Virus record (IMG/VR): IMGVR_UViG_3300045988_063681
Coordinates: 1 to 13,084 of that record
Reading direction: 5' to 3' (one strand)
Length of the DNA: 13,084 nt
Source: a virus
Shown: positions 1,469 to 13,084 of the stretch, one piece after another
Position numbering within the stretch: the stretch's first letter is position 1
Layout: each line of letters begins with the position of its first letter
Notes under the pieces: generated by a model
Told to the model about the DNA's origin: nothing
Databases searched by the model: none
What the model saw: only the letters and a program-made list of their open reading frames with translations
Position numbers and translations under genes: made by a program

Positions 1469-3592
1469 ATGGTAGTCGCAGGATATCCGGTTATTTATTT
1501 CAAAAACTATGATTATATGCGACTGTTCAATGCTGATTTTATCCGGCGATCCAACGCAGGGCATTATCTAGGTGTCTATGAAAAAATAATAACTGTAGAT
1601 ACAGAAACTTTCGTTTATCTCAATAAAGATATCGGTTTTGTAACAGACTGGACAATCACCATAGAGGATGATTGCTGTATTTACGGCAATCATGTTTCTG
1701 ATCTGATTGATACGATAGACAGGATCTGTACAACTTTACATGCTGACGATAGCCACCTTGTGAGGTTTTATGTGCATAACTTCCCTTATGACTATGTGTT
1801 TCTCCGAAATCATTTTTTCCAAAAATGGGGGAACCCTGACAAATCATTAGCTGCTAAAACACATAAGTATATTTTTATGAAATGGACAGGTCAAGGCATT
1901 GAGTTCCGGGACAGCCTTATCTTGACACAGCGATCATTAGAGAAGTTGTGTAAAGACATGGGAACAACTGAAAAAGCTGTCGGAACATGGGACTATAAGA
2001 AATTCCGAACGCCAGCAAGTCCACGTACAGCAAAAGAAATAGCATACGTTTGCACAGATACAATCAGTCTATGCAAGGCATTACGCAAATACATAGATCA
2101 GAGAGGATTCAACGTGGCAAATTGTCCGTTGACAAATACAGGGTTTATCCGGATGAACGCCCGCAGGAGAGCAAGAAAAGACAAGAAATGGAGAAAGCAA
2201 TTTGAGCAAATGGCTCTGACGTTAGAACAGTATGACCAGATGCTTGATTGCTATCATGGTGGCTATACTCATGCAAACAGGTATTATGTTAACCAACTGA
2301 TAAAAGACCCTGTTGAGTGCTATGATTTTGTAAGCTCATACATTGCCTGGATGTGCTATTGTAAGTTTCCAATGACTAGGTTTTGTTATACTAACAGTAT
2401 CACATTAAAAGACATCATGGAGCTTAAGGAAGAGTATGCTTTTTCCGGCTATATAAGATTAAAAAATCTGAGACTGAAAAAAGACTGCCCTATGCCCCCG
2501 CTTGCTTTTTCAAAAGCAAAAGTTTGCATTTTTCCGGAAGCCAAAAGCAAAAAGGAACAGTTCCATGACAACTTGGATAATGGAAAGATCGTTAATGCTG
2601 ATCTTGTCATATATCCATTTACTGACCCGGATTTAGAGGTCATTCTGTCAACTTATGAATACGAGTGGGCTGACGTGTCAAAAGTCATGAGGGCTACAAA
2701 AGACTACTTGCCGCAGTGGTTTACTGATTACTTGATGGAATTATTTTTTAAAAAATGTACACTTAAGGGTTTGGATGAAGCAAACTACATGATATCAAAA
2801 GGTGAGTTAAATGGCATGTACGGAATGACTGTACAAAGAATTATACAGATTTTATGCACTGAGTTAATGGAGTCCGGAGAGTGGGAAGCAAAAGAACCGG
2901 AGGACAGAGAAAAGGAACTTGAAAAGTTTTATAAGAATAAGAATAGCTTTATGCCCTATCAGTGGGGTGTATGGATCACAGCGTATGCACAAGCTTATTT
3001 GTTCCGGTTGGGTTCCTGTTGCCGGAAGTGGTTATACTCTGACACAGATTCCGTAAAAGGGACAGATTGGGATCATGATAAACTGGATGAGTTTAATCAA
3101 TCCATCATTTGTATGTCACAAAAGAGAAACATTGGAGTGGTAGAGTATAAAGGAAAAACCTTTCGGCTTGGAATTGCTGAGTTTGATGGACTATATTCAG
3201 AGTTTAAAACGATGGGTAGCAAGCGTTATTGCTATAGATTGAAAAAAGATGAATCCTTGCATCTGACGGTCGCAGGAGTTCCAAAAGAGGGTGTCTATTG
3301 TCTTGATGATGAGATCACAAATTTTCGAAAAGGGTTTGTTTTCAAAAATGATTTGATCTTCCGCAGGAACTACCGCAGATCAAATGACTGGCAGGATCCC
3401 AAATGGAAGATGAAGACGGAATATATATTTCATGATGGTGTCAATGAATTAACAATTGACGGATGCAAGATTGAATATGCATGTGCCATACGCTTGAGTG
3501 ATACAGAGTATGAGCTAGATCACACAATTCCATATGACAAGGAAACAGGACTGCCGCTGCCGTTTGAGATGGAAGATACCGTATACGGATAA
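1469..3592 (+). CDS. Protein-primed family-B DNA polymerase (phi29 gp2-like), 707 aa
   Basis: SD GGGAGG lies upstream of ATG1469. Motifs found: ExoI VDTETF (D44 at 1598-1600); ExoII HNFPYDYVF; ExoIII YVCTDTISL; motif A YDFVSSY; motif B KGELNGMYG (Kx3NSxYG type); motif C YSDTDS (3035-3052); KxY motif SKRYCY. Confidence 0.95.
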   Translation: MVVAGYPVIYFKNYDYMRLFNADFIRRSNAGHYLGVYEKIITVDTETFVYLNKDIGFVTDWTITIEDDCCIYGNHVSDLIDTIDRICTTLHADDSHLVRFYVHNFPYDYVFLRNHFFQKWGNPDKSLAAKTHKYIFMKWTGQGIEFRDSLILTQRSLEKLCKDMGTTEKAVGTWDYKKFRTPASPRTAKEIAYVCTDTISLCKALRKYIDQRGFNVANCPLTNTGFIRMNARRRARKDKKWRKQFEQMALTLEQYDQMLDCYHGGYTHANRYYVNQLIKDPVECYDFVSSYIAWMCYCKFPMTRFCYTNSITLKDIMELKEEYAFSGYIRLKNLRLKKDCPMPPLAFSKAKVCIFPEAKSKKEQFHDNLDNGKIVNADLVIYPFTDPDLEVILSTYEYEWADVSKVMRATKDYLPQWFTDYLMELFFKKCTLKGLDEANYMISKGELNGMYGMTVQRIIQILCTELMESGEWEAKEPEDREKELEKFYKNKNSFMPYQWGVWITAYAQAYLFRLGSCCRKWLYSDTDSVKGTDWDHDKLDEFNQSIICMSQKRNIGVVEYKGKTFRLGIAEFDGLYSEFKTMGSKRYCYRLKKDESLHLTVAGVPKEGVYCLDDEITNFRKGFVFKNDLIFRRNYRRSNDWQDPKWKMKTEYIFHDGVNELTIDGCKIEYACAIRLSDTEYELDHTIPYDKETGLPLPFEMEDTVYG

Positions 3593-3615
3593 AATGTTAT
3601 AAATCTGTAATAGTT

Positions 3616-3643
3616 TTGTAACATAAATAATTTACAATATAAA
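3616..3643 (+). promoter_or_regulatory. Possible internal promoter for the micro-ORF/SpoVG/ATPase block
   Basis: TTGTAA (3616-3621), 16 nt, TATAAA (3638-3643), in the 67-nt gap after the polymerase stop. The -35 element is also one arm of an inverted repeat, TTGTAA-N10-TTACAA (3616-3637). The match to consensus is weak. Confidence 0.3.
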
Positions 3644-3659
3644 CAGGAGGTGTAAAACT

Positions 3660-3773
3660 ATGAAAAAATTCTGGAGGGAAAATAAAGAAGATTTAAGTAC
3701 CCTTTTCTGGACTTGCGTTACTTTTGCTTGCATGTTTGCAAGCTGTCAGGTATGGTTATTGTTAGGTGATTAA
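3660..3773 (+). CDS. Small hydrophobic protein, 37 aa (below the ORF-track cutoff)
   Basis: ATG3660 is 8 nt after AGGAGGTG (3645-3652). Hand translation gives MKKFWRENKEDLSTLFWTCVTFACMFASCQVWLLLGD, a charged N-terminus followed by one likely transmembrane segment. TAA is at 3771-3773. Confidence 0.5.
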   Translation: MKKFWRENKEDLSTLFWTCVTFACMFASCQVWLLLGD

Positions 3774-3948
3774 ATTAGTAGATTCAGCAAACAAAGATTT
3801 TAATAATGGATTTACTAGTTTATATGATTTGAAAATCTATGTATCAAAAGTATTGTTTTCCTATTTAGAGGATTTAGTATGTGAACCAGAAACATGGGAG
3901 GACAATATGTTTCGTCTGAATGAGTGGATGGATTCATTAAGACATTAA
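3766..3948 (+). CDS. Hypothetical protein, 60 aa
   Basis: Track ORF. GTG3766 is the first codon after an in-frame TAG and overlaps the stop of the preceding micro-ORF (GTGATTAA), so reinitiation is plausible. The SD is poor. I recognise no family. Confidence 0.35.
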   Translation: MIKLVDSANKDFNNGFTSLYDLKIYVSKVLFSYLEDLVCEPETWEDNMFRLNEWMDSLRH

Positions 3949-3962
3949 GGAGGTGAAGAAAA

Positions 3963-4100
3963 TTGGTTGATATGTCTGAAATCTATGAAACATTGCGGAC
4001 AAGCAGCCTGAGAAAAGTAACCTATGAAGATGATGAGATCACTATCGTAGCTTACAAGGTGGGAAAAATCATTAGAATTGATGTAAAGGAGATTAAATAA
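3963..4100 (+). CDS. Hypothetical protein, 45 aa (42 aa if ATG3972 is used)
   Basis: AAGGAGGTG (3948-3956) is followed 6 nt later by TTG3963, which is in frame with ATG3972. Hand translation gives (MVD)MSEIYETLRTSSLRKVTYEDDEITIVAYKVGKIIRIDVKEIK, with TAA at 4098-4100. It is preferred over the antisense track ORF 3945-4127, which has no SD. Confidence 0.5.
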   Translation: MVDMSEIYETLRTSSLRKVTYEDDEITIVAYKVGKIIRIDVKEIK

Positions 4101-4101
4101 A

Positions 4102-4401
4102 ATGTTGAAATCAAATGTAAAAATCACATGCAGAGCTTATAATGGAAACTCAAAAACAAAAGCTTTTATTGATCTGGAAATGGATGAGACCCTTGTAATT
4201 AAAGGACTTACATTGGTTGAGGGAAAAAATGGTCTGTTCCTGACATTCCCAAGCACAAAGGGAAAAAAGGGAAAATATTATAATTCCGTGTATTCAATTG
4301 ATAAAGAATGGAAAGAGTCTCTTCAGGATGCTTGCATCAAAAAATACAATGAATGTAACCCGGCTAAGCAGCCAACATCCTCTGGGGGTGGATTTCAATA
4401 A
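4102..4401 (+). CDS. spoVG: SpoVG-family DNA/RNA-binding protein, 99 aa
   Basis: KAFIDLEMDETLVIKGLTLVEGKNGLFLTFPSTKGKKGKYYNSVYSIDKEWKESLQDACIKKY aligns with the SpoVG core as I recall it ([43 protein letters not shown].HPIN....KIQDAVL.EY). AAGGAG lies upstream. Its stop overlaps the ATPase start (TAATG, 4399-4403). Confidence 0.85.
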   Translation: MLKSNVKITCRAYNGNSKTKAFIDLEMDETLVIKGLTLVEGKNGLFLTFPSTKGKKGKYYNSVYSIDKEWKESLQDACIKKYNECNPAKQPTSSGGGFQ

Positions 4402-5447
4402 TGAACATCTATGATAGAAATGGCTGGCTGGACGTTCCAAGGATCGTCCAGCTGGCTGATAAAAATAAAATTAACTTTATCTTTATCATTGGGGCACGAC
4501 GAACTGGAAAAACGTATGGTATTTTCCAGCACTTCATCAATGATATTTTTTCCAAAAATGAGAAGATCATTTACATGCGTCGGACCAAAGAGCAGCTAAC
4601 AAAAGTTTTTCTTCCGGAGTTTGATCCATGGCTGGACATAAACAAAGACATGAACAGATTTTTTCACTTCGAGAAACCAAGAGGTGAATACGGACGTATT
4701 AAAATAATGGAACAAACAGAGGATGAAGAAGTTTATAGAGGTGAGGCTTTTTGTCTTACTTCCATGCATAACAACCGTGGTTTCTCCGGATCTGATTTTT
4801 CGGAGGGGATTTATGATGAGTTTATTCCGGAGAAGATTGCCAAGTCAATCAGTGGGGAAGATGATGCTTTTTTGAACGCTGTCGAAACAATCTCTGCAAA
4901 CAGGGAGTTGCAAGGAAAGAAACCGTTCCGCTGGTGGTTGGCTTCCAACTCGAACACATTGGATAACGCAATTGTGCAGGCTTTCGGACTGTTGCCAATC
5001 TTGGAGCGAATGAAAAAGAACAAGCAGGAGTTTTCTTTACTCAAAGAGCGAGGAATCATACTTGTATTAATTAATGATTCACCAATTTCTGAGAAGAAGA
5101 AAAACACTGCCCTTTATCGTGCATTATCCAACGATACAGACTTTGCAAAGATGGCATTATCGAATGAATTTGCATATGATGATACCTCAGCTGTCAAATC
5201 AGAGGACATCCGGCAATACAAGCTAATTTGTGTGATCGGAAAAGTGGCTATTTATGAGCATAAGTCAAAGGCACACTTGTATGTGTCAGATCATATATCG
5301 GGATCTTGCAAGGATGTATTTGAAGATAGTCAGCATGGTAAAGATCAATTTAGGTGCTTTTATAGCTGGATTGAGAGCTATCGTCTGACAAATAGAATCA
5401 GCTACCAGAATATTTCGGTAAAATTCTATATTGACAAACTATTTTAA
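4401..5447 (+). CDS. DNA packaging (encapsidation) ATPase, phi29 gp16-like, 348 aa
   Basis: Walker A is IIGARRTGKTY (G31-T38, 4491-4514), followed by IIYMRRTKEQL; compare phi29 gp16 VIGARGIGKSY...FIYVRRYKPEL as recalled. Walker B is GIYDEFIPEK (phi29 IVFDEFIREK). WWLASNSN matches CICLSNA. The size matches gp16. Confidence 0.93.
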   Translation: MNIYDRNGWLDVPRIVQLADKNKINFIFIIGARRTGKTYGIFQHFINDIFSKNEKIIYMRRTKEQLTKVFLPEFDPWLDINKDMNRFFHFEKPRGEYGRIKIMEQTEDEEVYRGEAFCLTSMHNNRGFSGSDFSEGIYDEFIPEKIAKSISGEDDAFLNAVETISANRELQGKKPFRWWLASNSNTLDNAIVQAFGLLPILERMKKNKQEFSLLKERGIILVLINDSPISEKKKNTALYRALSNDTDFAKMALSNEFAYDDTSAVKSEDIRQYKLICVIGKVAIYEHKSKAHLYVSDHISGSCKDVFEDSQHGKDQFRCFYSWIESYRLTNRISYQNISVKFYIDKLF

Positions 5448-5459
5448 AAATAGTATATT
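5431..5459 (+). promoter_or_regulatory. Near-consensus promoter within the 3' end of the ATPase gene (candidate late or small-RNA promoter)
   Basis: TTGACA (5431-5436), 17 nt, TATATT (5454-5459). Predicted +1 is near 5466-5467. The spacer contains the 15-nt palindrome CTATTTTAAAAATAG (5439-5453). Confidence 0.55.
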
Positions 5460-5466
5460 TTATATA

Positions 5467-5544
5467 GGTCAACGTGGCTACATCGACCGTCGGAAGCGGA
5501 TGCCGTGGGATGATTACCCGGAAGCGTTGACCTATTTTAATTTT
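5467..5544 (+). ncRNA. Candidate structured RNA: GC-rich three-way junction closed by an 8-bp stem and followed by a U-tract
   Basis: GGTCAACG (5467-5474) is perfectly complementary to CGTTGACC (5525-5532), followed by TATTTTAATTTT (5533-5544). Hand folding gives two internal hairpins (about 5481-5502 and 5503-5521). 5467-5532 is 40/66 G+C by hand count within an AT-rich genome. It starts at the predicted +1 of the 5431 promoter. Function is unknown. Confidence 0.35.
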
Positions 5545-5577
5545 CACTTCCGGCAGAAAAGGAGAAAAAAGAAAAAA

Positions 5578-5892
5578 ATGAAAGTAGATCAGATTTTAGA
5601 ACTGGGAAAACTTGGATTTACGAAAAATGAAATTTTAGGGATTCTGAACGCCCAGAACATGACTGGGCTTAATCAGATCACAAGCTCACAGGGTACAGAA
5701 CAGATTGTAAATACTCCACTGAATCTGACAGCACAGACAGGACAGGATACAACCAATGCAGCATTGCTGACAGCAATCAATACTTTGACTGCTACGTTAC
5801 AGGCTGGGAACCTGTCAGCATCCGGAAAAACTGGAACTACTCAGCGTACTTCCGACAATGTGGCAGAAGATTTAATGAAACTCATGAACTAA
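5578..5892 (+). CDS. Putative scaffolding protein, 104 aa
   Basis: The track ORF 5431-5892 starts at a TTG inside the ATPase gene and reads through the structured region. I prefer ATG5578 (MKVDQILELGKLGF...) downstream of AAAGGAG, although the 13-nt spacing is long. It is a small helical T/Q-rich protein directly upstream of the capsid gene, like phi29 gp7. The call rests on position only. Confidence 0.5.
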   Translation: MKVDQILELGKLGFTKNEILGILNAQNMTGLNQITSSQGTEQIVNTPLNLTAQTGQDTTNAALLTAINTLTATLQAGNLSASGKTGTTQRTSDNVAEDLMKLMN

Positions 5893-5905: not shown

Positions 5906-7102
5906 ATGGCAAACAGTTTAGTAGTCCAGGATGCATATTTGATCATTAATGATCTGTACAAGATGGCTACCGGACGGGAGAATATCAAGGCAATAGATAC
6001 AAGTTCTTTTGTAGCTGTGGGTGAAACCATGCTTCGGACAGGTGTAGAACCTACACTGAAAGCACTCAGCCAGTGGTGTGGACGAACCTATTTTGAGATG
6101 GAAAAATACAGATCCGGAGTGTTCCGGTCAATCATTGAGAATAATGAACGCTGGGGAGCTATCACACGTGAGATCATTTCACTTCCGCTGGATGCAGAGG
6201 CATCACAGGATTGGAATACAGACTTGAATGATAAACAGCTTGCCGATGGTCAGTCAGTTGATATGTACAAAATCAACGCTCCAAAAGTAGTGGAGTTGAA
6301 ATTCTATGGTTCAAAAGTTTTACAGTCTCATATAACACGTTTTCGCGACCAGCTGGCACTTGCTTTTTCCAATGAAGCAGAGTTTCTTATGTTTGTAAGC
6401 TCATACATGACAGCATATTACAACGATATTGAATCCAGAAATGAAGCAAAGCGCAGACTGACGGTGCTTAACTTTATGGCGGGTATTTCCTCACTGGGAA
6501 CAAATGAGGTAGATCTTGTAAAGGAATACAATGCATCATACGGTACAGAACTTACAAGAAAGCAACTTTTAAGTCCTGAGCATCACAGGGATTTCATGGC
6601 TTTTGTAGTTGCAAGAATCAAGAAAGATTCAAAGAAGATGCAGGACAGAACTACAAAGTATCATATGAATCTGACTGGAAAAGATATTTTGAGATTCACT
6701 CGACCAGAGAATCAGAAGTTGCTCATGTACACAGATTTCTGGATTGATTCTGAAACACAGGTATTCCCGACAGTCTTTTCTGATGAGCAGCTTAAAATCG
6801 CTGACAAAGAGTTAGTAAACGGCTGGCAGGAGTTCGACAGTCCGGCTATCAATATCACACCTAACATCATTGGTGCTGACGGAGTTTCAAAAACAGCCAC
6901 GAAAGCGGTAACTCTGTCATATGTACTTGGTCTTTTATATGATCGTAGAGCTATGGGGGTTAATAATCAATGGATGTATTCTGCTGTTACCCCATTCAAT
7001 GCGGCAGGTGGCTATTACAATATCTTTGACCACTACCGCTTTAATGCATGGAACAACTTCACACACAATGCAATTCTTTATGTGCTGGGGGAGGGAGTAT
7101 AA
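5906..7102 (+). CDS. Major capsid protein, phi29 gp8-like (HK97 fold), 398 aa
   Basis: A strong SD, AAGGAGGTG, lies 7 nt upstream. EFLMFVSSYMTAYYNDIE resembles phi29 gp8 NFESFVSSIINAIYNSAE as recalled. Size and position (after scaffold, in the structural block) fit. Confidence 0.85.
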   Translation: MANSLVVQDAYLIINDLYKMATGRENIKAIDTSSFVAVGETMLRTGVEPTLKALSQWCGRTYFEMEKYRSGVFRSIIENNERWGAITREIISLPLDAEASQDWNTDLNDKQLADGQSVDMYKINAPKVVELKFYGSKVLQSHITRFRDQLALAFSNEAEFLMFVSSYMTAYYNDIESRNEAKRRLTVLNFMAGISSLGTNEVDLVKEYNASYGTELTRKQLLSPEHHRDFMAFVVARIKKDSKKMQDRTTKYHMNLTGKDILRFTRPENQKLLMYTDFWIDSETQVFPTVFSDEQLKIADKELVNGWQEFDSPAINITPNIIGADGVSKTATKAVTLSYVLGLLYDRRAMGVNNQWMYSAVTPFNAAGGYYNIFDHYRFNAWNNFTHNAILYVLGEGV

Positions 7103-8310: not shown

Positions 8311-9650
8311 CAGAGATTATCTTATTTCATTTTTCAAAACGAAAAAATAGTACAAAAAGACCAACAGAACAGGGAACTGCGGTTCCCTGTCTTTTAAAAT
8401 CAAATACAACTTTTCAAAATCCAGTGTTCAAATTAAAATTATCATTAGATAATGCATTGCAATATAATTATCTGAAATGGGCTGACCATTACTATTTTAT
8501 CAGCTCAACGGTATCATTAAATACTGACATGGTTGAGATTTCAGCGAGTGAGGATGTGCTGGCAACTTACCGGACAGAGATCAACAACTATACATGCTTC
8601 ATTGAGAGATCCAGTAAGCAGACTACGCTTGCAAATGATTCCATGTATATTCCGACAAATGACTGGGTTAGTCAGTCTACGATAGTCGGACAGCCGATAA
8701 ACACGTTTGTGAATGGGTATGCCAGAAACTATCTGTTGCGGACTATTTCACTAGATGGAATAAGCACTTATTATGTGACAGGGAGACAATTAGATGATCT
8801 GATGCAATTCATGTACACATTTGGATCAATTCCAGACGTGATTGAGTCAGCACTTACACGTTTACTTTTCAATCCATTTCAGTATATCGTAGATTTAAAA
8901 TGGCTACCATTCCGATTAAGCTCATTCTTGAATATTGCCGATAATATCAAGCTTGGCTACTGGGATAGCAATGTAACTGCGGCATTAATTAATGATGCAA
9001 CATGTACTTTTTCCTACGATTTAACCCTTGGGAATCCCTTATACGCTGATACTGATTTCAGATTTTACAATCCTGCTTTTTCAAAGTATAGTGTTAAGCT
9101 TCCATTTGTGGGGGTTATTCCTGTCAATCCAACAAAGACCCATAAGGGACAGTTAAAAGCTACTTATAACTTTGATGCTGTTTCCGGAATGGCTGACGTT
9201 TGGCTCACTTCCGGATCAGATGAATATGCACATTTCCAATGTCAGCTTGCCGTTCCAGTGCAAATTGGATATGCCACAACAAACATTGGTCACCTTACGA
9301 CAAGCTTGATAGACGTTGGCACAAGCCTTGCTTCTGGTAACCCGATTGGAGCTGTCACAAATACATTGGGTGCTTTCCAGAGTGTGACCTCACCAGAACC
9401 TAACATGGTAGGAACTGTTGGAAATATCAGCAATATACTTAATAACATGGATGCAAACAGTATCTGCTATGCCTGCACAAGCATAGATCCAGATAGAGCA
9501 AGTGAGGGTTATATAGATGGGACTATCCGGTCTATATCTGCACTGAGTGGTTTTGTAAAGTGCAGGAATGCATCTATCCAGATTGCAGGATTCGAGGGGG
9601 ATCAGGAACAGGTAAATAGTTATCTTAACAATGGATTCTATTTTGAATAA
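8307..9650 (+). CDS. Tail knob / major tail protein, phi29 gp9-like, 447 aa
   Basis: The track start at 8244 lies inside the lysin gene. ATG8307 overlaps the lysin stop (ATGA). The N-terminal region (MTEIILFHFSKRKNSTKRP...YNYLKWADHYYFISSTVSLNTDMVEISASEDVLATY) resembles the N-terminal domain of phi29 gp9-type tail proteins (...YIMFQNADYGNKWFYAFVTELEF...VHFEIDVLQTW, as recalled). It lies directly upstream of the portal, as gp9 does. Confidence 0.65.
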   Translation: MTEIILFHFSKRKNSTKRPTEQGTAVPCLLKSNTTFQNPVFKLKLSLDNALQYNYLKWADHYYFISSTVSLNTDMVEISASEDVLATYRTEINNYTCFIERSSKQTTLANDSMYIPTNDWVSQSTIVGQPINTFVNGYARNYLLRTISLDGISTYYVTGRQLDDLMQFMYTFGSIPDVIESALTRLLFNPFQYIVDLKWLPFRLSSFLNIADNIKLGYWDSNVTAALINDATCTFSYDLTLGNPLYADTDFRFYNPAFSKYSVKLPFVGVIPVNPTKTHKGQLKATYNFDAVSGMADVWLTSGSDEYAHFQCQLAVPVQIGYATTNIGHLTTSLIDVGTSLASGNPIGAVTNTLGAFQSVTSPEPNMVGTVGNISNILNNMDANSICYACTSIDPDRASEGYIDGTIRSISALSGFVKCRNASIQIAGFEGDQEQVNSYLNNGFYFE

Positions 9651-9665
9651 AGGAGGGATGAAAAC

Positions 9666-10586
9666 ATGTGGGCACCTATGAATTTTGACAAGATCAATAT
9701 ATGTACAAATTACTTCCAGCCGTCCGGAATAAAAGTAAGCAGCATTTATACAGATATTTTTGATCGCATGCTTTATGAGCGTGTATGCTCTGTACTTGAG
9801 ATTAAATATAACGCAAACATTGACATTGATTACTTCAAATATTGCTTACTGTTCGGTGGCTATATTTCCATCACAAAGACAGATCTTTATGGACATATTG
9901 CACAGTATCCAACATTGACAGGCTATAGCATTTATTTTAAGCCTACAAGAGCAAGTATACACACATATGCAAGCAATGCCACGATTGAGATTGAGGACAT
10001 GGAGATTGGAAAAGACTGTTCTGTCATCTATCTCAGACCTACATTCTGCGGAATTGGGGATATCATTGGATTTTATAGTTATAAATTAGCATTGGTAGCA
10101 AGTGCTTTTGACATGAATGTTTTTAATTCAAAACTTGCTTTTCTGATAGCTGCGAAAAACAAGGCGTCAGCTCAGACATTGAAAAAAATCTATGATAGCA
10201 TACAGGCTGGTAATCCAGTTGAAGCTTTTGACGTATCCATAAAAACAGAAGATAGACAAGGAAGCAAGCAGGATGCATGGGAGAGCTTCAACAAAGATTT
10301 AAAACAAAATTTCATAGCACCGGAGCTGATTGAGGTTTTTGAAAAACTTCTGGATCAGTTCGATACAGAGGTGGGGATCCCATCTGTCGGATCTGATAAA
10401 AAAGAACGTCTGAATGTACTTGAAACAAGCAAAAATGATGCAGAATCCGTGACACGGTTAACTACTTGGCTTGAGACAATGCAAGTAGGAGTGGATATGA
10501 CAAACAGGCTTTACCCGGAGATGAATCTGTCAATCAAGATCAGAAGCTATGAAACTGCGGAGGTGAAAAGTTATGGGACTTTATAA
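9666..10586 (+). CDS. Portal / upper collar connector, phi29 gp10-like, 306 aa
   Basis: AGGAGG lies upstream. KKERLNVLETSKNDAES matches phi29 gp10 KKERMVTDEVSSNDEQ; LKKIYDSIQAGNPVEAF matches LKQVYNQYEGNAPVIF; CSVIYLR matches GVVIYNN (as recalled). The size is close to gp10 (309 aa). Confidence 0.88.
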   Translation: MWAPMNFDKINICTNYFQPSGIKVSSIYTDIFDRMLYERVCSVLEIKYNANIDIDYFKYCLLFGGYISITKTDLYGHIAQYPTLTGYSIYFKPTRASIHTYASNATIEIEDMEIGKDCSVIYLRPTFCGIGDIIGFYSYKLALVASAFDMNVFNSKLAFLIAAKNKASAQTLKKIYDSIQAGNPVEAFDVSIKTEDRQGSKQDAWESFNKDLKQNFIAPELIEVFEKLLDQFDTEVGIPSVGSDKKERLNVLETSKNDAESVTRLTTWLETMQVGVDMTNRLYPEMNLSIKIRSYETAEVKSYGTL

Positions 10587-11275: not shown

Positions 11276-12532
11276 ATGTATTTCAGATACCCACACAGTG
11301 GATCACAAGATATGAACTTAGACTGGTTGCTTAAAGTTGGCAAACAGGCTGACAAGGATCATGAGGAATGGACGCATATAAAAGATACTGCACAAACTAT
11401 GATTGATGATGCAATTCAGAAAAGTCTGGATGATGGAGAGATCGGAAAAGTAGTAAATGATGCCACTACAAAAGTAATCAACGAACAGATTGACCCATTA
11501 AAAGAACAGGTTGGAACAAATACAACTGAAATAACAAAGTTACAAAAAAGAGAAGGACTTTTTGACCATTCCGGGAAAACTATCATCATCGGAGACAGCT
11601 ACACCGTTGGTTATACTCCGGAGGGTAACATAACGCCTTGGACTACTAACTTTATCAAGTATACCGGACTTGAGAATGTCACAATCTCCGCAAATGGTGG
11701 GGCATCTTTCTCAACAGCTGATAACTCATTTCTTATGCTGTTAAATGCCGTACCAGCTTCTAATGAGGTCAAACAGATCCTCGTTGTAGGTGGATTTAAT
11801 GAGTTCGGAACCTATTCAGAAATTGAAAATGGAATCAATAGTTTTATGGGAGTGGCAGAAGCGAGATTTCCGAACGCAAAAGTATTTTCTGCTATGGTTG
11901 CATGGTCAGTAGATCGGACGGATGATCCAACTGTACAGAATAGAATTAAGATTGCAAAATCTGTATATAACACCCAGAGAAAGAATTGGCGATATCTGGC
12001 AGGCTCAGACTATATTCTTCATGCTGATGGCTTTCTCGCTTCTGATGGCTTCCATCCAAACATAACCGGACAGGAGAGGCTTGCAAGCTATCTTGCTACC
12101 GCTGTTGAAACAGGGGCTTGCAGTCCATCATTTTATGAAGTCGTTGCAAACTTTGAAGCTGGTGACTTTGCACCTGCTCCGGGATCAAGTTGGACGTTTA
12201 TAAGTTCCTACAATGAGAGCACAAGCACTCTTATCTGGAGCAACTATGTTTGCCTCCCAAACAGCGGAACACTTACCTGTGATGGCACTGAGTATCGTTT
12301 GGGGCGTATTTTCTCAACGTCATTTATTGGAGATAATAACGGTTATACCTGTTATCCAACAACTGTGATCGTTAAGTCTGTCAGTGACTTCTATCATATC
12401 CCTGCACAGCTTAACTTCCGAGGTCGACATATTTATTTGAGCTTGTATGATGTTTCTGATGACAAGCACAACTACCGGACGTTGACAGAGGTCACACAGG
12501 TACAGATTCATAGAGGTTCTATCACGATGTAA
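11276..12532 (+). CDS. Tail appendage or fibre with an SGNH/GDSL hydrolase (esterase) domain, 418 aa
   Basis: AAGGAGG lies upstream. The N-terminal region includes a coiled-coil segment (INEQIDPLKEQVGTNTTEITKLQKR). SGNH blocks: I IIIGDSYTVGY (G106-D107-S108, 11591-11599); II SANGGASF; III VVGGFNEF; V SDGFHPN. There is a C-terminal domain of about 130 aa. It is the last gene of the structural operon, in the gp12 position. Confidence 0.8.
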   Translation: MYFRYPHSGSQDMNLDWLLKVGKQADKDHEEWTHIKDTAQTMIDDAIQKSLDDGEIGKVVNDATTKVINEQIDPLKEQVGTNTTEITKLQKREGLFDHSGKTIIIGDSYTVGYTPEGNITPWTTNFIKYTGLENVTISANGGASFSTADNSFLMLLNAVPASNEVKQILVVGGFNEFGTYSEIENGINSFMGVAEARFPNAKVFSAMVAWSVDRTDDPTVQNRIKIAKSVYNTQRKNWRYLAGSDYILHADGFLASDGFHPNITGQERLASYLATAVETGACSPSFYEVVANFEAGDFAPAPGSSWTFISSYNESTSTLIWSNYVCLPNSGTLTCDGTEYRLGRIFSTSFIGDNNGYTCYPTTVIVKSVSDFYHIPAQLNFRGRHIYLSLYDVSDDKHNYRTLTEVTQVQIHRGSITM

Positions 12533-12855
12533 AAATAAAAAAACGGTAGCCCAGCATTCGCTGGGCTACCGTTTTTATTTTTTGCATCTGCCAAAAGCTT
12601 TCTGAGTAGCTTGATTACTGACCAATTTGTTGATGCTTTGTAGATTTCAAGGCCTTTAAATGGGTGATAGTGAGCTACAGACCAATCTTTAAATCCTGTC
12701 AAAGCTATTTCGACATAATCTAAATAGCAAAGATAGTATACTGACATATATTCCTCATCTTCGGATAGTTCACAGATAAAGCCTTGCTTTTCAAGGTCTT
12801 TAGCAAGCTGTTTGAAATTCATTGTGTCCTTATTGTAATATTGATTGTATTTCAT
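12508..12855 (-). CDS. Hypothetical right-end early protein, 115 aa as read (folded part probably about 90 aa)
   Basis: ATG12855 is 7 nt after the ITR-borne AGGAGG and is driven by the ITR-R promoter. The last ~25 codons are encoded by the terminator hairpin, its U-tract and the 3' end of the convergent gene; the stop is at 12510-12508. I recognise no family. Confidence 0.6.
   Translation of the reverse strand: MKYNQYYNKDTMNFKQLAKDLEKQGFICELSEDEEYMSVYYLCYLDYVEIALTGFKDWSVAHYHPFKGLEIYKASTNWSVIKLLRKLLADAKNKNGSPANAGLPFFYFYIVIEPL
12539..12583. terminator. Bidirectional rho-independent terminator
   Basis: A 12-bp GC-rich stem, CGGTAGCCCAGC (12544-12555) pairing with GCTGGGCTACCG (12560-12571), has loop ATTC. 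It is extended by A5/T5 pairs, preceded by AAAAATAAAAAAA and followed by TTTTTATTTTTT, so a U-tract is present in both orientations. It lies between the convergent genes. Confidence 0.9.
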
Positions 12856-12862
12856 GTTTCAT

Positions 12863-13084
12863 CCTCCTACCTTATGGCTGTTGCTTGATTTATTTGATAA
12901 GTCTATTATAGCTCATTTGAACTAAATGTCAACAGAATAAGTGACAGACTTTATATGATATTGTCAGACAATTTAATGTTATAGTTGCCTAGCAAGATTC
13001 ATGCCAGTTTTACAATTATGAACGAAATATGAACAGATTGGGGAAATGTTAACAATTTGTTCACAGGTTTGTCTTGCCAAGTTT
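12863..13084. repeat. Right inverted terminal repeat (ITR-R), 222 bp
   Basis: Reverse complement of 1-222 with one mismatch at 12912. The window ends TTT-3'. CCTCCT at 12863-12868 is the SD for the leftward gene that starts at 12855. Confidence 0.95.
12905..12932 (-). promoter_or_regulatory. Early promoter inside ITR-R, mirror copy firing leftward
   Basis: On the minus strand, TTGACA (12932-12927), 16 nt, TATAAT (12910-12905). It is the same cassette as 153-180 except for the substitution at 12912 in the spacer. It drives the ORF at 12855..12508. Confidence 0.7.

Follow-up and report, generated by a model that had tools for sequence, protein, structure and literature searches.

A predicted pseudoknotted three-way-junction RNA at the start of the late operon in phi29-like phages of the human gut

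The DNA analysed here (IMG/VR record IMGVR_UViG_3300045988_063681; the window, which is the whole stretch of 13,084 nt) is the complete 13-kb genome of a gut phi29-like phage related to the Guelinviridae, and carries a gene for a packaging ATPase of the gp16 type and a late operon of 7.5 kb. Phages of this kind, with genomes of 12–15 kb, are abundant in human gut metagenomes. A sigma-70/sigma-A-type promoter occupies positions 5431–5459 of the + strand (TTGACA at 5431–5436, a 17-nt spacer, TATATT at 5454–5459), with its -35 box inside the 3' end of the ATPase gene and a predicted +1 at about 5466–5467. Immediately downstream, positions 5467–5532 form the most G+C-rich 66-nt segment of the genome (40/66 G+C), which begins with GGTCAACG (5467–5474), ends with its complement CGTTGACC (5525–5532), and is followed by TATTTTAATTTT, a U-rich, terminator-like tract on the same strand (5533–5544). 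The first late gene, which encodes a scaffold-like protein of 104 aa, has the Shine-Dalgarno (SD) sequence GGAG at 5561–5564 and its ATG at 5578 (5561–5580, + strand). Every coordinate and string that the preliminary description had given for the region 5431–5577, the G+C count included, was correct on re-checking. The promoter described there scores 11/12, third best among the 62 consensus matches in the window, and is conserved: in 21 of 21 clade representatives a promoter scoring 9–11/12 has its -10 box ending 4–10 nt 5' of the closing helix (P1) of the element, and P1 begins at +1 to +3 in all clades.

The region is non-coding. An extension of the scaffold ORF from TTG5431 or ATG5500, raised earlier as a coding explanation, was rejected, as in 61 of 80 relatives a stop codon interrupts this frame between element and ATG; indels, and changes that are compensatory and not synonymous, also contradict it. 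A search for tRNA or tmRNA (ARAGORN, Rfam tRNA model) found no cloverleaf, and Rfam 15 returned nothing at the element even at E<=10, with pRNA, hammerhead, twister and riboswitches covered. Our covariance model R1 places a single copy of the element in the genome, with no second copy and no other pRNA candidate; the remaining gaps are ITRs or bear small ORFs, in line with the earlier remark that no pRNA-like gene is evident elsewhere. Taken on this sequence alone, the structure is unproven, since the single-sequence fold was not significant against 200 shuffles (z -1.33, with 21/200 shuffles equally good), and it is the comparative data that provide the proof of the fold.

The element recurs in more than 100 related gut phage contigs, spread over at least 10 clades, with packaging ATPase identity down to 37%, and P1 occurs among these relatives in more than 15 different yet complementary versions. 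In alignment A1, 97.3% of cells pair, compared with 30–43% in slid registers, and double changes occur at 14 pairs; in alignment A3, 91% are paired, compared with 31–48% for slid registers, and 20 of 28 pairs, including two tertiary pairs, show double compensatory changes (alignment A2 was left out, as it contained reverse-strand partial hits). RNAalifold on the alignment returned the same junction as the covariation fold. Owing to the G-U pairs 16-69, 26-56 and 31-37 of alignment A1, only the sense strand can form the structure, which is thus a feature of the RNA. Searches with the covariance models gave no match in phi29, Enterococcus phage vB_EfaP_2/Chl-5, Eggerthella phage LE1-1 and three more distant gut contigs; at about 6478–6400 on the minus strand of the cultured Amedibacillus phage AD70P2 (OP172638) the element is apparent by manual parsing only, neither model detecting it. 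When 185,579 species genomes of bacteria and archaea were scanned for the motif, the only copy lay on a phage contig binned in a metagenome-assembled genome (MAG), and a host-derived riboswitch was rejected on this ground. The motif is real and appears to be previously undescribed: neither Rfam 15 nor the literature searched has a counterpart, though one of the published large-scale catalogues of structured phage RNAs may list it anonymously.

The comparisons describe a 66-base RNA with a predicted three-armed, pseudoknotted fold, which would form the first part of the late (head-gene) transcript. The discrete, closed, promoter-proximal three-way-junction RNA proposed in the preliminary description is supported, with promoter and P1 conserved, and both of the hairpins drawn by hand in it need correction. 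All strands that follow are on the + strand. P1 pairs 5464–5475 (core GGUCAACGU at 5467–5475, with an A/U extension at 5464–5466) with 5524–5535; double compensatory changes support 11 of its 12 pairs, and RNAalifold predicts it independently. The first arm starts with P2a, in which GGC (5476–5478) pairs with GCC (5502–5504), with GC, AU, GU, CG and GC/AU as the types observed at the three pairs. An 8-nt 5' bulge, the CE-like loop UACAUCGA (5479–5486), leads into hairpin P2b (5487–5499; CCGU, loop CGGAA, GCGG, pairing 5487–5490 with 5496–5499), and a 2-nt 3' bulge, AU (5500–5501), leads back to P2a. Every alignment cell of P2b is paired (100%), with pair 29-39 as CG or UA, and pair 31-37 as CG, UA or UG. 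The first hairpin had been drawn before as CAU/AUG plus CCG/CGG, which is wrong. The second arm, P3 (5507–5519; GGG, loop AUGAUUA, CCC), had been recognized correctly as to its GGG/CCC stem and loop, and the CC that had been paired there belongs to the first arm. The P3 stem is near-invariant, with one GC-to-AU double change (in L171), and the junction segment J3/1, GGAA (5520–5523), has an AA that is invariant in the alignment columns. A kink-turn in the P2 internal loop was rejected on its short strand, which lacks tandem G-A pairs.

Absent from the earlier fold was a tertiary pairing between the bulge and the P3 loop, in which AUCG (5482–5485) pairs with UGAU (5511–5514). Loop and bulge covary, with 23-58 as AU in 38 and GC in 4 sequences, 24-57 as UA in 31 and CG in 11, 25-56 as CG in 42, and 26-55 as AU in 26 and GU in 15; the bulge/loop combinations include AUCA/UGAU, ACCA/UGGU, GCCA/UGGC and GUCA/UGAC, the last of these in L161, with AUCC/GGAU in AD70P2. 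The P2b loop reads YNGAA in every clade (CGGAA, CAGAA, UGGAA, UCGAA) and this distal hairpin loop is the most conserved part of the element, while the junction nucleotides, i.e. J2/3 and those of J3/1 other than its AA, vary. A CsrA-type GGA loop was rejected, as some clades have CAGAA or UCGAA at this place, and a GNRA tetraloop register for the same loop (the E loop) is contradicted by the covariation of pair 31-37. The loops are near-invariant across clades in which phage proteins diverge to 37–42% identity (structural proteins to about 40%), which points to a conserved partner. The direct repeat CGGAAGCG that had been pointed out at 5491–5498 and 5519–5526 is present and is conserved in the closest subclade only.

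Downstream of the closed structure, the U-tract that had been seen in this genome is a conserved feature of most clades, with 6–9 U in the first 10 nt; L063, L154, L156 and L165 have only 4–5, and in L162 it is essentially absent as judged by eye. Beyond it, 6 nt before the GGAG core of the SD sequence, lies a leader segment, CUUCCGGC (5547–5554, + strand), that is complementary to 5489–5496 (GUCGGAAG, with one G-U) and that we term the anti-element. The complementarity of CTTCCGG (5547–5553) had been pointed out previously, and it is conserved, but CCGGAAG at 5518–5524, which had been taken as its partner, is not the consistent one; in this clade that is the P2b/E-loop site at 5489–5496. Most clades have such a complementary leader segment, in lineage-specific registers with matching changes, so that target and anti-element covary as GUCACGGG/CCCGUGAC, GCCACGG/CCGUGGC, GUCAUGGGA/UCCCAUGAC, GCCGUGG/CCACGGC, GGCGCGC/GCGCGCC, GCGGCGGC/GCCGCCGC and GCCGGAAG/CUUCCGGC. 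It is present in most collinear clades as well as in L161 and L164, and missing in the L170 clade, L162 and AD70P2; in the middle clade it gives near-perfect alternative duplexes of 20–25 bp. The element fold and the anti-element fold are modelled as 0–8 kcal/mol apart. Pairing of the anti-element raises the modelled probability of an unpaired SD from 0.09 to 0.99 here, and from 0.02–0.6 to 0.87–1.0 across clades, the masking being weak in these models, which use nearest-neighbour energies and leave the pseudoknot out. Lying downstream of the U-tract, the anti-element cannot serve as a classical antiterminator, and as anti-element and U-tract are each missing or weak in some clades, neither part of this platform is universal.

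Position ties the element to the late operon. It is always on the same strand, about 20–110 nt upstream of the first late gene in all clades, and it stays in front of the late/head operon when the ATPase gene is at another site, as in the convergent genomes of L161, the L170-L186 clade (where the element matches at 50–60 bits) and L189, which have their ATPase gene kilobases away. Immediately downstream comes a scaffold-like gene in most clades and, in L161 and L162, one for a small YvrJ-like membrane protein; the association is thus with the operon and not with one protein, and autoregulation by the scaffold protein is unlikely, given that the first gene of L161 and L162 is not the scaffold gene.

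We regard the element as most likely controlling late-gene expression rather than packaging DNA, and we put at slightly better than even the chance that it works as a leader switch, a structured RNA acting in cis from the 5' end of the late (lysis/head/tail) operon. A late-operon leader, attenuator or translational control element had been listed among the alternatives in the preliminary description, and of these it fits best. The promoter, the fold with its tertiary pairing, the position and the alternative pairing are established by the comparisons above; from them we infer termination, switching and the kind of effector involved. Host sigma-A RNA polymerase would initiate at the base of P1, and the nascent 66 nt would collapse into a compact three-way junction, locked by the 4–5-bp pairing between P2 bulge and P3 loop, presumably within one molecule. 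P1, closed against the U-rich tract, would then act as a terminator-like or attenuating structure, and with the element folded in this way, the leader further downstream would be available for a weak masking of the ribosome-binding site. After read-through, the SD-adjacent leader segment of the transcript could pair with the junction interior, so that P2a/P3 or P2b would unfold and the ribosome-binding site would be exposed. The near-invariant, exposed YNGAA loop and the junction adenines are a probable docking site for a conserved macromolecular effector, which would set the balance between the folded and the anti-element states. This effector might come from the host, as its RNA polymerase or some other factor, or from the phage, as an early protein of which the SpoVG-like protein is an example. 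Counting against this model are the incomplete spread of anti-element and U-tract, the weak modelled masking and the site of the anti-element downstream of the U-tract; a +1 and a 3' U-tract that meet at the base of a single closing helix would, moreover, equally mark a small-RNA gene in its own right.

The universal features, promoter and fold, are all that would be required if the element were instead a processive antitermination RNA like put, EAR or canT, in which the nascent fold binds its own polymerase, and makes it resistant to P1/U-tract and downstream termination across the 7.5-kb late operon. We consider this unlikely. In its favour, a promoter-proximal, compact tertiary fold of about 70 nt, with invariant loops in divergent phages, fits host RNA polymerase as the partner, and there are precedents in HK022 putL, an RNA of about 70 nt encoded directly after PL (PMC9378689), and in the cis-acting antiterminator RNA canT of the Gram-positive mobile element Tn916 (PMC11658703). 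Speaking against it, put RNA consists of two adjacent, V-shaped stem-loops without a closing helix (PMC9378689), whereas P1 closes the fold here and abuts the U-tract; an RNA that stays bound is hard to reconcile with a conserved anti-element that would unfold it after read-through; and strong internal terminators are not evident in the late operon of this genome.

About equally unlikely, in our estimate, is the reading that attracted attention to the locus, in which the element would be a miniature prohead RNA (pRNA): an RNA of about 75 nt, released by termination or processing at the U-tract, that acts in trans, oligomerises on the portal via intermolecular pairing of bulge and hairpin loop, and helps to dock the gp16-type ATPase as phi29 pRNA does, with read-through yielding late mRNA and the anti-element inactivating the copy embedded in it. 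In favour of such a role, the ATPase encoded here is of the gp16 type, promoter +1 and U-tract bracket the RNA, the genome has no other non-coding gap or known pRNA, and the element is kept in every clade examined, down to 37% ATPase identity. RAGATH-8 RNA was rejected as an alternative packaging RNA, as L158 is the only relative in which it occurs, and searches of the window and of 21 other relatives did not find it. The pRNA of Bacillus phages is a separate RNA gene at the left genome end, whereas the element invariably sits in the 5' UTR of the late genes and, where head operon and ATPase gene are apart, accompanies the former. The phi29 connector gp10 binds pRNA with a basic N-terminal segment (MARKRS...), whereas the connector N-termini of nine clades are not basic (e.g. 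MWAPMNFDKINIC...). The U-tract, moreover, is not universal among clades. P2a and P3 are equally short (3–5 bp), which would set the two loops side by side and favours intramolecular pairing, and a ring of such short arms would probably be too small for the portal. P1 has 9–12 freely covarying bp, and no conserved bulge for ATPase docking, whereas packaging in phi29 needs the A-helix (bases 1–28 with 92–117, about 25 bp) and its CCA bulge (PMC5066667). The Rfam pRNA model, RF00044, with which the preliminary description had proposed to search, gave no match on the window even at E<=10, with phi29 as positive control at 145 bits, and model R1 did not match phi29 pRNA (only 5.7 bits); this kind of test is weak, as pRNAs themselves are only about 12% similar to each other, a divergence that contrasts in turn with the near-invariant loops of the element (PMC5066667). 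On the other side, the order of elements (closing helix, an arm of C helix, CE bulge and E hairpin, and D hairpin) equals that of the Rfam consensus of the pRNA core, with bulge and hairpin loop complementary and covarying (PMC5066667). The pRNA analogue suggested earlier is therefore not supported as family membership, given the RF00044 result, the short P1, the fusion to the late operon, the non-basic connectors and the near-invariant loops; most features expected of a pRNA are lacking, yet the pRNA-like topology, with its complementary bulge and hairpin loop, is real and leaves a pRNA-like function a small probability.

Two further readings are improbable. A small-molecule riboswitch, in which the junction would be the aptamer for a metabolite or signalling nucleotide, and the ligand would stabilise P1 and so bring about termination or SD masking, has the right anatomy (three-way junction, loop-loop tertiary pairing, mutually exclusive alternative pairing, terminator-like tail), but the junction nucleotides vary apart from the AA of J3/1, conservation is highest in the distal hairpin loop, no copy exists in any bacterial genome or upstream of metabolic genes in the scan of 185,579 genomes, no Rfam riboswitch matches, and the platform is not universal. 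Just as improbably, the element may serve only as a 5'-terminal mRNA stabiliser and/or RNase processing module, where a structure at +1 (P1 begins there, or within 2 nt, in all clades) would shield late mRNA from 5' exonuclease, and the long middle-clade duplex would be an RNase III site, but a simple hairpin would be enough for this, and the invariant loops, the covarying tertiary pairing and the three-way architecture would be left unexplained.

The motif is phage-specific and strongly supported by covariation, with a defined tertiary contact and a conserved alternative fold, and its apparent presence in the cultured phage AD70P2 would open it to experiment. As a leader switch, it would be a new class of regulatory RNA, controlling an entire late operon from +1. 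Should it, against the odds, be a drastically miniaturised counterpart of phi29 pRNA (about 70 nt, co-transcribed with the head genes, assembling on the portal via bulge/loop kissing), RNA-dependent DNA packaging would reach beyond Bacillus phages to a large set of phages from the human gut, and the minimal packaging RNA would be redefined, in a form useful for RNA nanotechnology. The equally long shot of a new polymerase-binding antitermination class would make that class universal in these phages. On either reading, the element serves as a diagnostic marker of where the late operon begins in these phages.

Several known systems invite comparison. Three-way-junction riboswitches (purine, THF-I) resemble the element in their 5'-UTR location and loop-loop or loop-bulge pairing, and resemble its copies in most clades in a mutually exclusive alternative pairing and a terminator-like tail, with SD effects that for the element are modelled; in the element, the U-tract directly adjoins P1 itself, the competing strand comes only after that tract, conservation resides in an exposed hairpin loop and not in the junction, and neither a known ligand nor bacterial copies go with it. 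Phi29 pRNA (RF00044, "3WJ core of Phi29 bacteriophage pRNA") is likewise found in a phage with protein-primed replication and a gp16-type ATPase, and likewise has a strong promoter of its own, a three-way junction whose closing helix joins the 5' and 3' ends, a first arm of helix, 8–9-nt 5' bulge, 4-bp helix and hairpin, a short hairpin as second arm, and a covarying 4-nt Watson-Crick complementarity between the bulge and the loop of the second hairpin. Sequence or profile similarity is undetectable in either direction, and the element is smaller (66 nt, against 117–174 nt), with a closing helix of 9–12 bp that lacks the CCA bulge of pRNA and arms of 3–5 bp, against 9 and 6 bp; it lies in sense orientation in the late-operon 5' UTR and not as a separate early gene at the genome end, and, unlike phi29 pRNA, it has a leader anti-element, loops that are near-invariant across clades, and a connector without a basic N-terminus. 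PyrR/TRAP-type attenuators and phage translational operators are alike in that a leader fold fixed by a trans-acting protein sets read-through or translation, with an unrelated architecture, and with a binding protein that is for the element a candidate only. Compared with HK022 put, to which it has no known sequence relation, the element has a three-way junction and a closing helix, followed by a U-tract and an unfolding anti-element; with HK022 put, EAR and Tn916 canT it shares a size of about 70 nt, a promoter-proximal site, a place as the first part of a long phage or mobile-element operon, and a function that would require no dedicated phage protein.

Comparison of the window with related phages reveals a conserved, folded RNA between the ATPase gene and the head genes. 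Relatives (L numbers denote compared loci and contigs) were recovered through the ATPase as 80 IMG/VR loci, one GenBank record and 14 further contigs, and wherever ATPase identity is 63% or more the element comes after the stop codon of the ATPase gene. On recheck against the window sequence every string and coordinate of the preliminary description was correct, and its compositional claims stood, 5467-5532 being the single richest 66-nt window (40/66 G+C) of a 38.5% G+C genome, between flanks of 19% and 26%. Taken alone, the window sequence has a fold no better than that of shuffled versions (MFE -23.8, z -1.33), and neither ARAGORN nor Rfam, including its model of phi29 prohead RNA (pRNA, RF00044), returned anything at the element, so that the case rests on comparison. 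In alignment A1 (60 distinct sequences) 97.3% of cells are paired, versus 30-43% with the 3' partners slid, two-sided changes occur at 14 pairs, and the covariation score was reached by 0 of 500 shuffles, while RNAalifold independently yields the same three-way junction. The broader alignment A3 (42 sequences) holds double changes at 20 of 28 pairs, and these abundant compensatory changes bear out the junction that had been proposed by hand-folding. The closing helix, P1, takes more than 15 different complementary versions, with 5' strands including GGUCAACG, GGUCAGAG, GGGAAAAC, GGGGAAGC, GGAAGCG, GGAAAGCA, GGGAAACG, GGCAGUG, GGCAGGA, GGCGGG, GGGCGGGG and UGAGGG, and conserved G-U pairs make the structure sense-strand specific, and hence an RNA feature. 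The region is non-coding, as had been supposed: 61 of the 80 relatives have an in-frame stop, and an upstream start of the scaffold ORF was not borne out.

P1 (5464-5475 with 5524-5535) encloses two arms. The first consists of P2a (5476-5478 with 5502-5504), an 8-nt 5' bulge (5479-5486), P2b (5487-5490 with 5496-5499; loop CGGAA, of the form YNGAA in all clades) and a 2-nt 3' bulge between P2b and the 3' strand of P2a; the second is the hairpin P3 (5507-5509 with 5517-5519; loop AUGAUUA), joined to P1 by the strand J3/1 (GGAA, with invariant AA). The hand-fold was therefore right about the overall architecture, but not about the pairing of its first hairpin or the extra CC/GG of its second. 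It also lacked a tertiary pairing of the bulge (5482-5485) with the P3 loop (5511-5514), which covaries at two positions (AUCR/UGAU, ACCA/UGGU and GCCA/UGGC in A3) and has the variants GUCA/UGAC in L161 and AUCC/GGAU in the cultured Amedibacillus phage AD70P2.

The 13,084 bases of the window make up the complete linear genome of a phage. Its inverted terminal repeats (1-232 and 12853-13084) measure about 230 bp, far more than the 6 bp of those in phi29, and each has a Shine-Dalgarno sequence (SD) and an inward-facing perfect TTGACA-16-TATAAT promoter (153-180, + strand; 12932-12905, - strand). All major genes lie on the + strand: a protein-primed family-B DNA polymerase (1469-3592), a SpoVG-like protein (4102-4401; Pfam 8e-18) directly 5' of the gp16-type encapsidation ATPase (4401-5447) and overlapping its start, a 104-aa scaffold-like gene (5578-5892), the Phi29_MCP major capsid protein (5906-7102), an NlpC/P60 tail lysin, the connector (9666-10586) and a GDSL hydrolase. 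The sole classical strong terminator of this genome, bidirectional, intrinsic and with a perfect 17 bp (12539-12576), stands between the end of the late operon and a converging right-end ORF of 115 aa (12508-12855, - strand; no Pfam match). Small right-end ORFs with precomputed Pfam matches to the anti-CRISPR AcrIC5 occur in L154 (12773-12961, -), L156 (11068-11256, -) and L158 (13070-13246, +). L158 (ENA ERZ28661661 scaffold_1785; 63% ATPase identity) also carries, between its lysozyme and SpoVG-like genes, a full-length 276-nt RAGATH-8 RNA (RF02687, 203 bits; 3587-3859, +), which was not found in the window or in 21 other relatives searched. The window's relatives come from human faecal metagenomes, and the nearest cultured ones are the Amedibacillus phages AD70P2 and AD70P3 (Guelinviridae), at 32% ATPase identity.

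The promoter noted before the element scores 11/12, ranking third among 62 consensus matches in the window, and all 21 clade representatives have a promoter close to the TTGACA-16/18-TATAAT consensus (9-11/12), in many cases with an extended -10 TG. The distance from promoter end to the first G of P1 is 4-10 nt in 21/21, which places the transcript start at the base of P1. In L036 (about 4040-4090) the late promoter is tandemly duplicated (TTGACAAATTATTCAAATAATCTTATATT twice), directly 5' of the element. The element always lies on the same strand as, and just 5' of, the first late gene, which varies by clade; it is scaffold-like in most, and in L161 and L162 it encodes a small membrane protein resembling YvrJ, and lysis genes come next. 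In genomes of convergent layout (L161, L170-L186, L189) the ATPase gene is closed by an ordinary terminator and the element lies kilobases away, heading an operon with the scaffold and capsid genes. The element tracks the late operon, not the ATPase gene.

Downstream of P1 most clades have a U-rich tract, with U at 6-9 of the first 10 positions; in L063, L154, L156 and L165 the tract is weak, and L162 has essentially none. In most clades an anti-element complementary to the element interior lies after the tract and before the SD, in a lineage-specific register with matching changes on both sides. Target and leader are, respectively, GCCGGAAG and CUUCCGGC in the window clade (window 5489-5496 with 5547-5554), GAAACGGAU... 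and ...AUCCGUUUC in the middle clade (up to about 25 bp), GUCACGGG and CCCGUGAC in L063, GCCACGG and CCGUGGC in L072, GUCAUGGGA and UCCCAUGAC in L158, GCCGUGG and CCACGGC in L154, GGCGCGC and GCGCGCC in L161, and GCGGCGGC and GCCGCCGC in L164. This pairing and P2a/P3 or P2b are mutually exclusive. By constrained folding the two states lie 0-8 kcal/mol apart, the pseudoknot not being counted; when the junction is formed, the U-tract and anti-element are left free and fold onto the SD and its A-rich spacer, and the probability of an unpaired SD is 0.02-0.6 (window 0.09), against 0.87-1.0 (window 0.99) in the alternative state. The anti-element is absent from the L170 clade, L162 and AD70P2, so that what all clades share is a promoter, a common fold and placement at the 5' end of the late operon.

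The covariance model R1, and R2 built from its matches, detected the element in clades at only 37-42% ATPase identity (L161, 27 bits; L162, 34; L163, 29; L164, 24; L189, 33; L190, 32; the L170-L186 clade, 50-60). The AD70P2 version was parsed by hand and reproduced by RNAfold (z -2.0). The search gave no match in phi29, an Enterococcus salasmavirus, Eggerthella phage LE1-1 or three more distant gut contigs. One more distant gut phi29-like contig in which no element was detected, L193 (MT836587), has a tRNA at 8491-8563 (-; Rfam 64.8 bits). The salasmavirus Enterococcus phage vB_EfaP_2/Chl-5 (L195) has a 268-nt non-coding gap (4572-4838) directly 5' of its annotated scaffolding gene, with only a 13-bit partial R2 match (4730-4775); another kind of leader, or a pRNA, may reside in this gap. 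When 185,579 prokaryotic species, one genome each, were scanned with a degenerate motif, the sole match was a phage contig of 12.6 kb that had been binned in an Odoribacter MAG, and the motif is thus, as judged from genome sequences, phage-specific. Rfam 15 has no matching family, and in the papers searched neither the motif nor its pseudoknot or late-operon link is described. A 2023 catalogue of over ten thousand anonymous candidate structured RNAs in phages (PMC10690425) may include it without a name.

We give about an even chance to the element being a cis-acting leader of the late operon, in which an attenuating fold and its refolding to expose the SD are balanced by a trans factor. The nascent RNA would fold co-transcriptionally into the pseudoknotted junction, closing P1 against the U-tract, so that transcription would be attenuated, a short RNA made and the SD left weakly masked; read-through transcripts would refold via the anti-element and expose the SD. 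A factor that recognises the adenines of the junction together with the YNGAA loop, which is exposed, would set the balance. Of this scheme the promoter, the fold with its tertiary contact, the genomic position and the alternative pairing are established by the comparison, whereas termination, switching and the effector are inferred. SpoVG proteins bind nucleic acids, which makes the SpoVG-like protein a candidate for this role; its gene is kept in many clades, not all. A polymerase-modifying antitermination RNA of the put/EAR/canT kind would require the universal features only, but is at odds with the closing helix and the anti-element, and we consider it unlikely; a mini-pRNA or other trans-acting small RNA is improbable to a similar degree. 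A small-molecule riboswitch is harder still to credit, given that the junction varies and that bacteria have no copies, and we think it very improbable that the element does no more than stabilise the 5' end or serve as an RNase III module.

The pRNA core comprises a closing A-helix, a first arm in which a C-helix is followed by a CE bulge of 8-9 nt and by an E-helix of 4 bp with its E loop, and a D hairpin as second arm (PMC5066667; Rfam consensus), and the CE and D loops of phi29 pRNA pair intermolecularly (PMC5066667). According to reviews, the only known pRNAs are those of phi29-like phages of Bacillus (PMC11476376); a putative one exists in Cp-1 (PMC6266182), and pRNAs are only 12% similar to one another (PMC5066667). 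The preliminary description had suggested a pRNA analogue, and the resemblance is real and striking, the parts of the element following one another in exactly the same order and its bulge and loop being complementary and covarying; in most respects that could be tested, however, the element does not qualify as a pRNA. Profiles match in neither direction (RF00044 on the window, R1 on phi29 pRNA), P1 has 9-12 bp and lacks a conserved bulge, the element forms part of the late operon whereas pRNA is a separate gene, and the connector N-termini of nine clades are non-basic. pRNAs co-evolve with fast-evolving phage structural proteins, whereas the element's loops are near invariant across clades of about 40% protein identity, which points to a conserved partner that may be a ligand or come from the host, as its polymerase or another factor. 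Both arms are short alike (3-5 bp), setting bulge and loop side by side, which favours a contact that is probably intramolecular, as in purine riboswitches or natural hammerheads. We regard the element as a new family of a kind already known, the structured regulatory leader or phage small RNA, and one that should be open to experiment through the cultured Amedibacillus phage.
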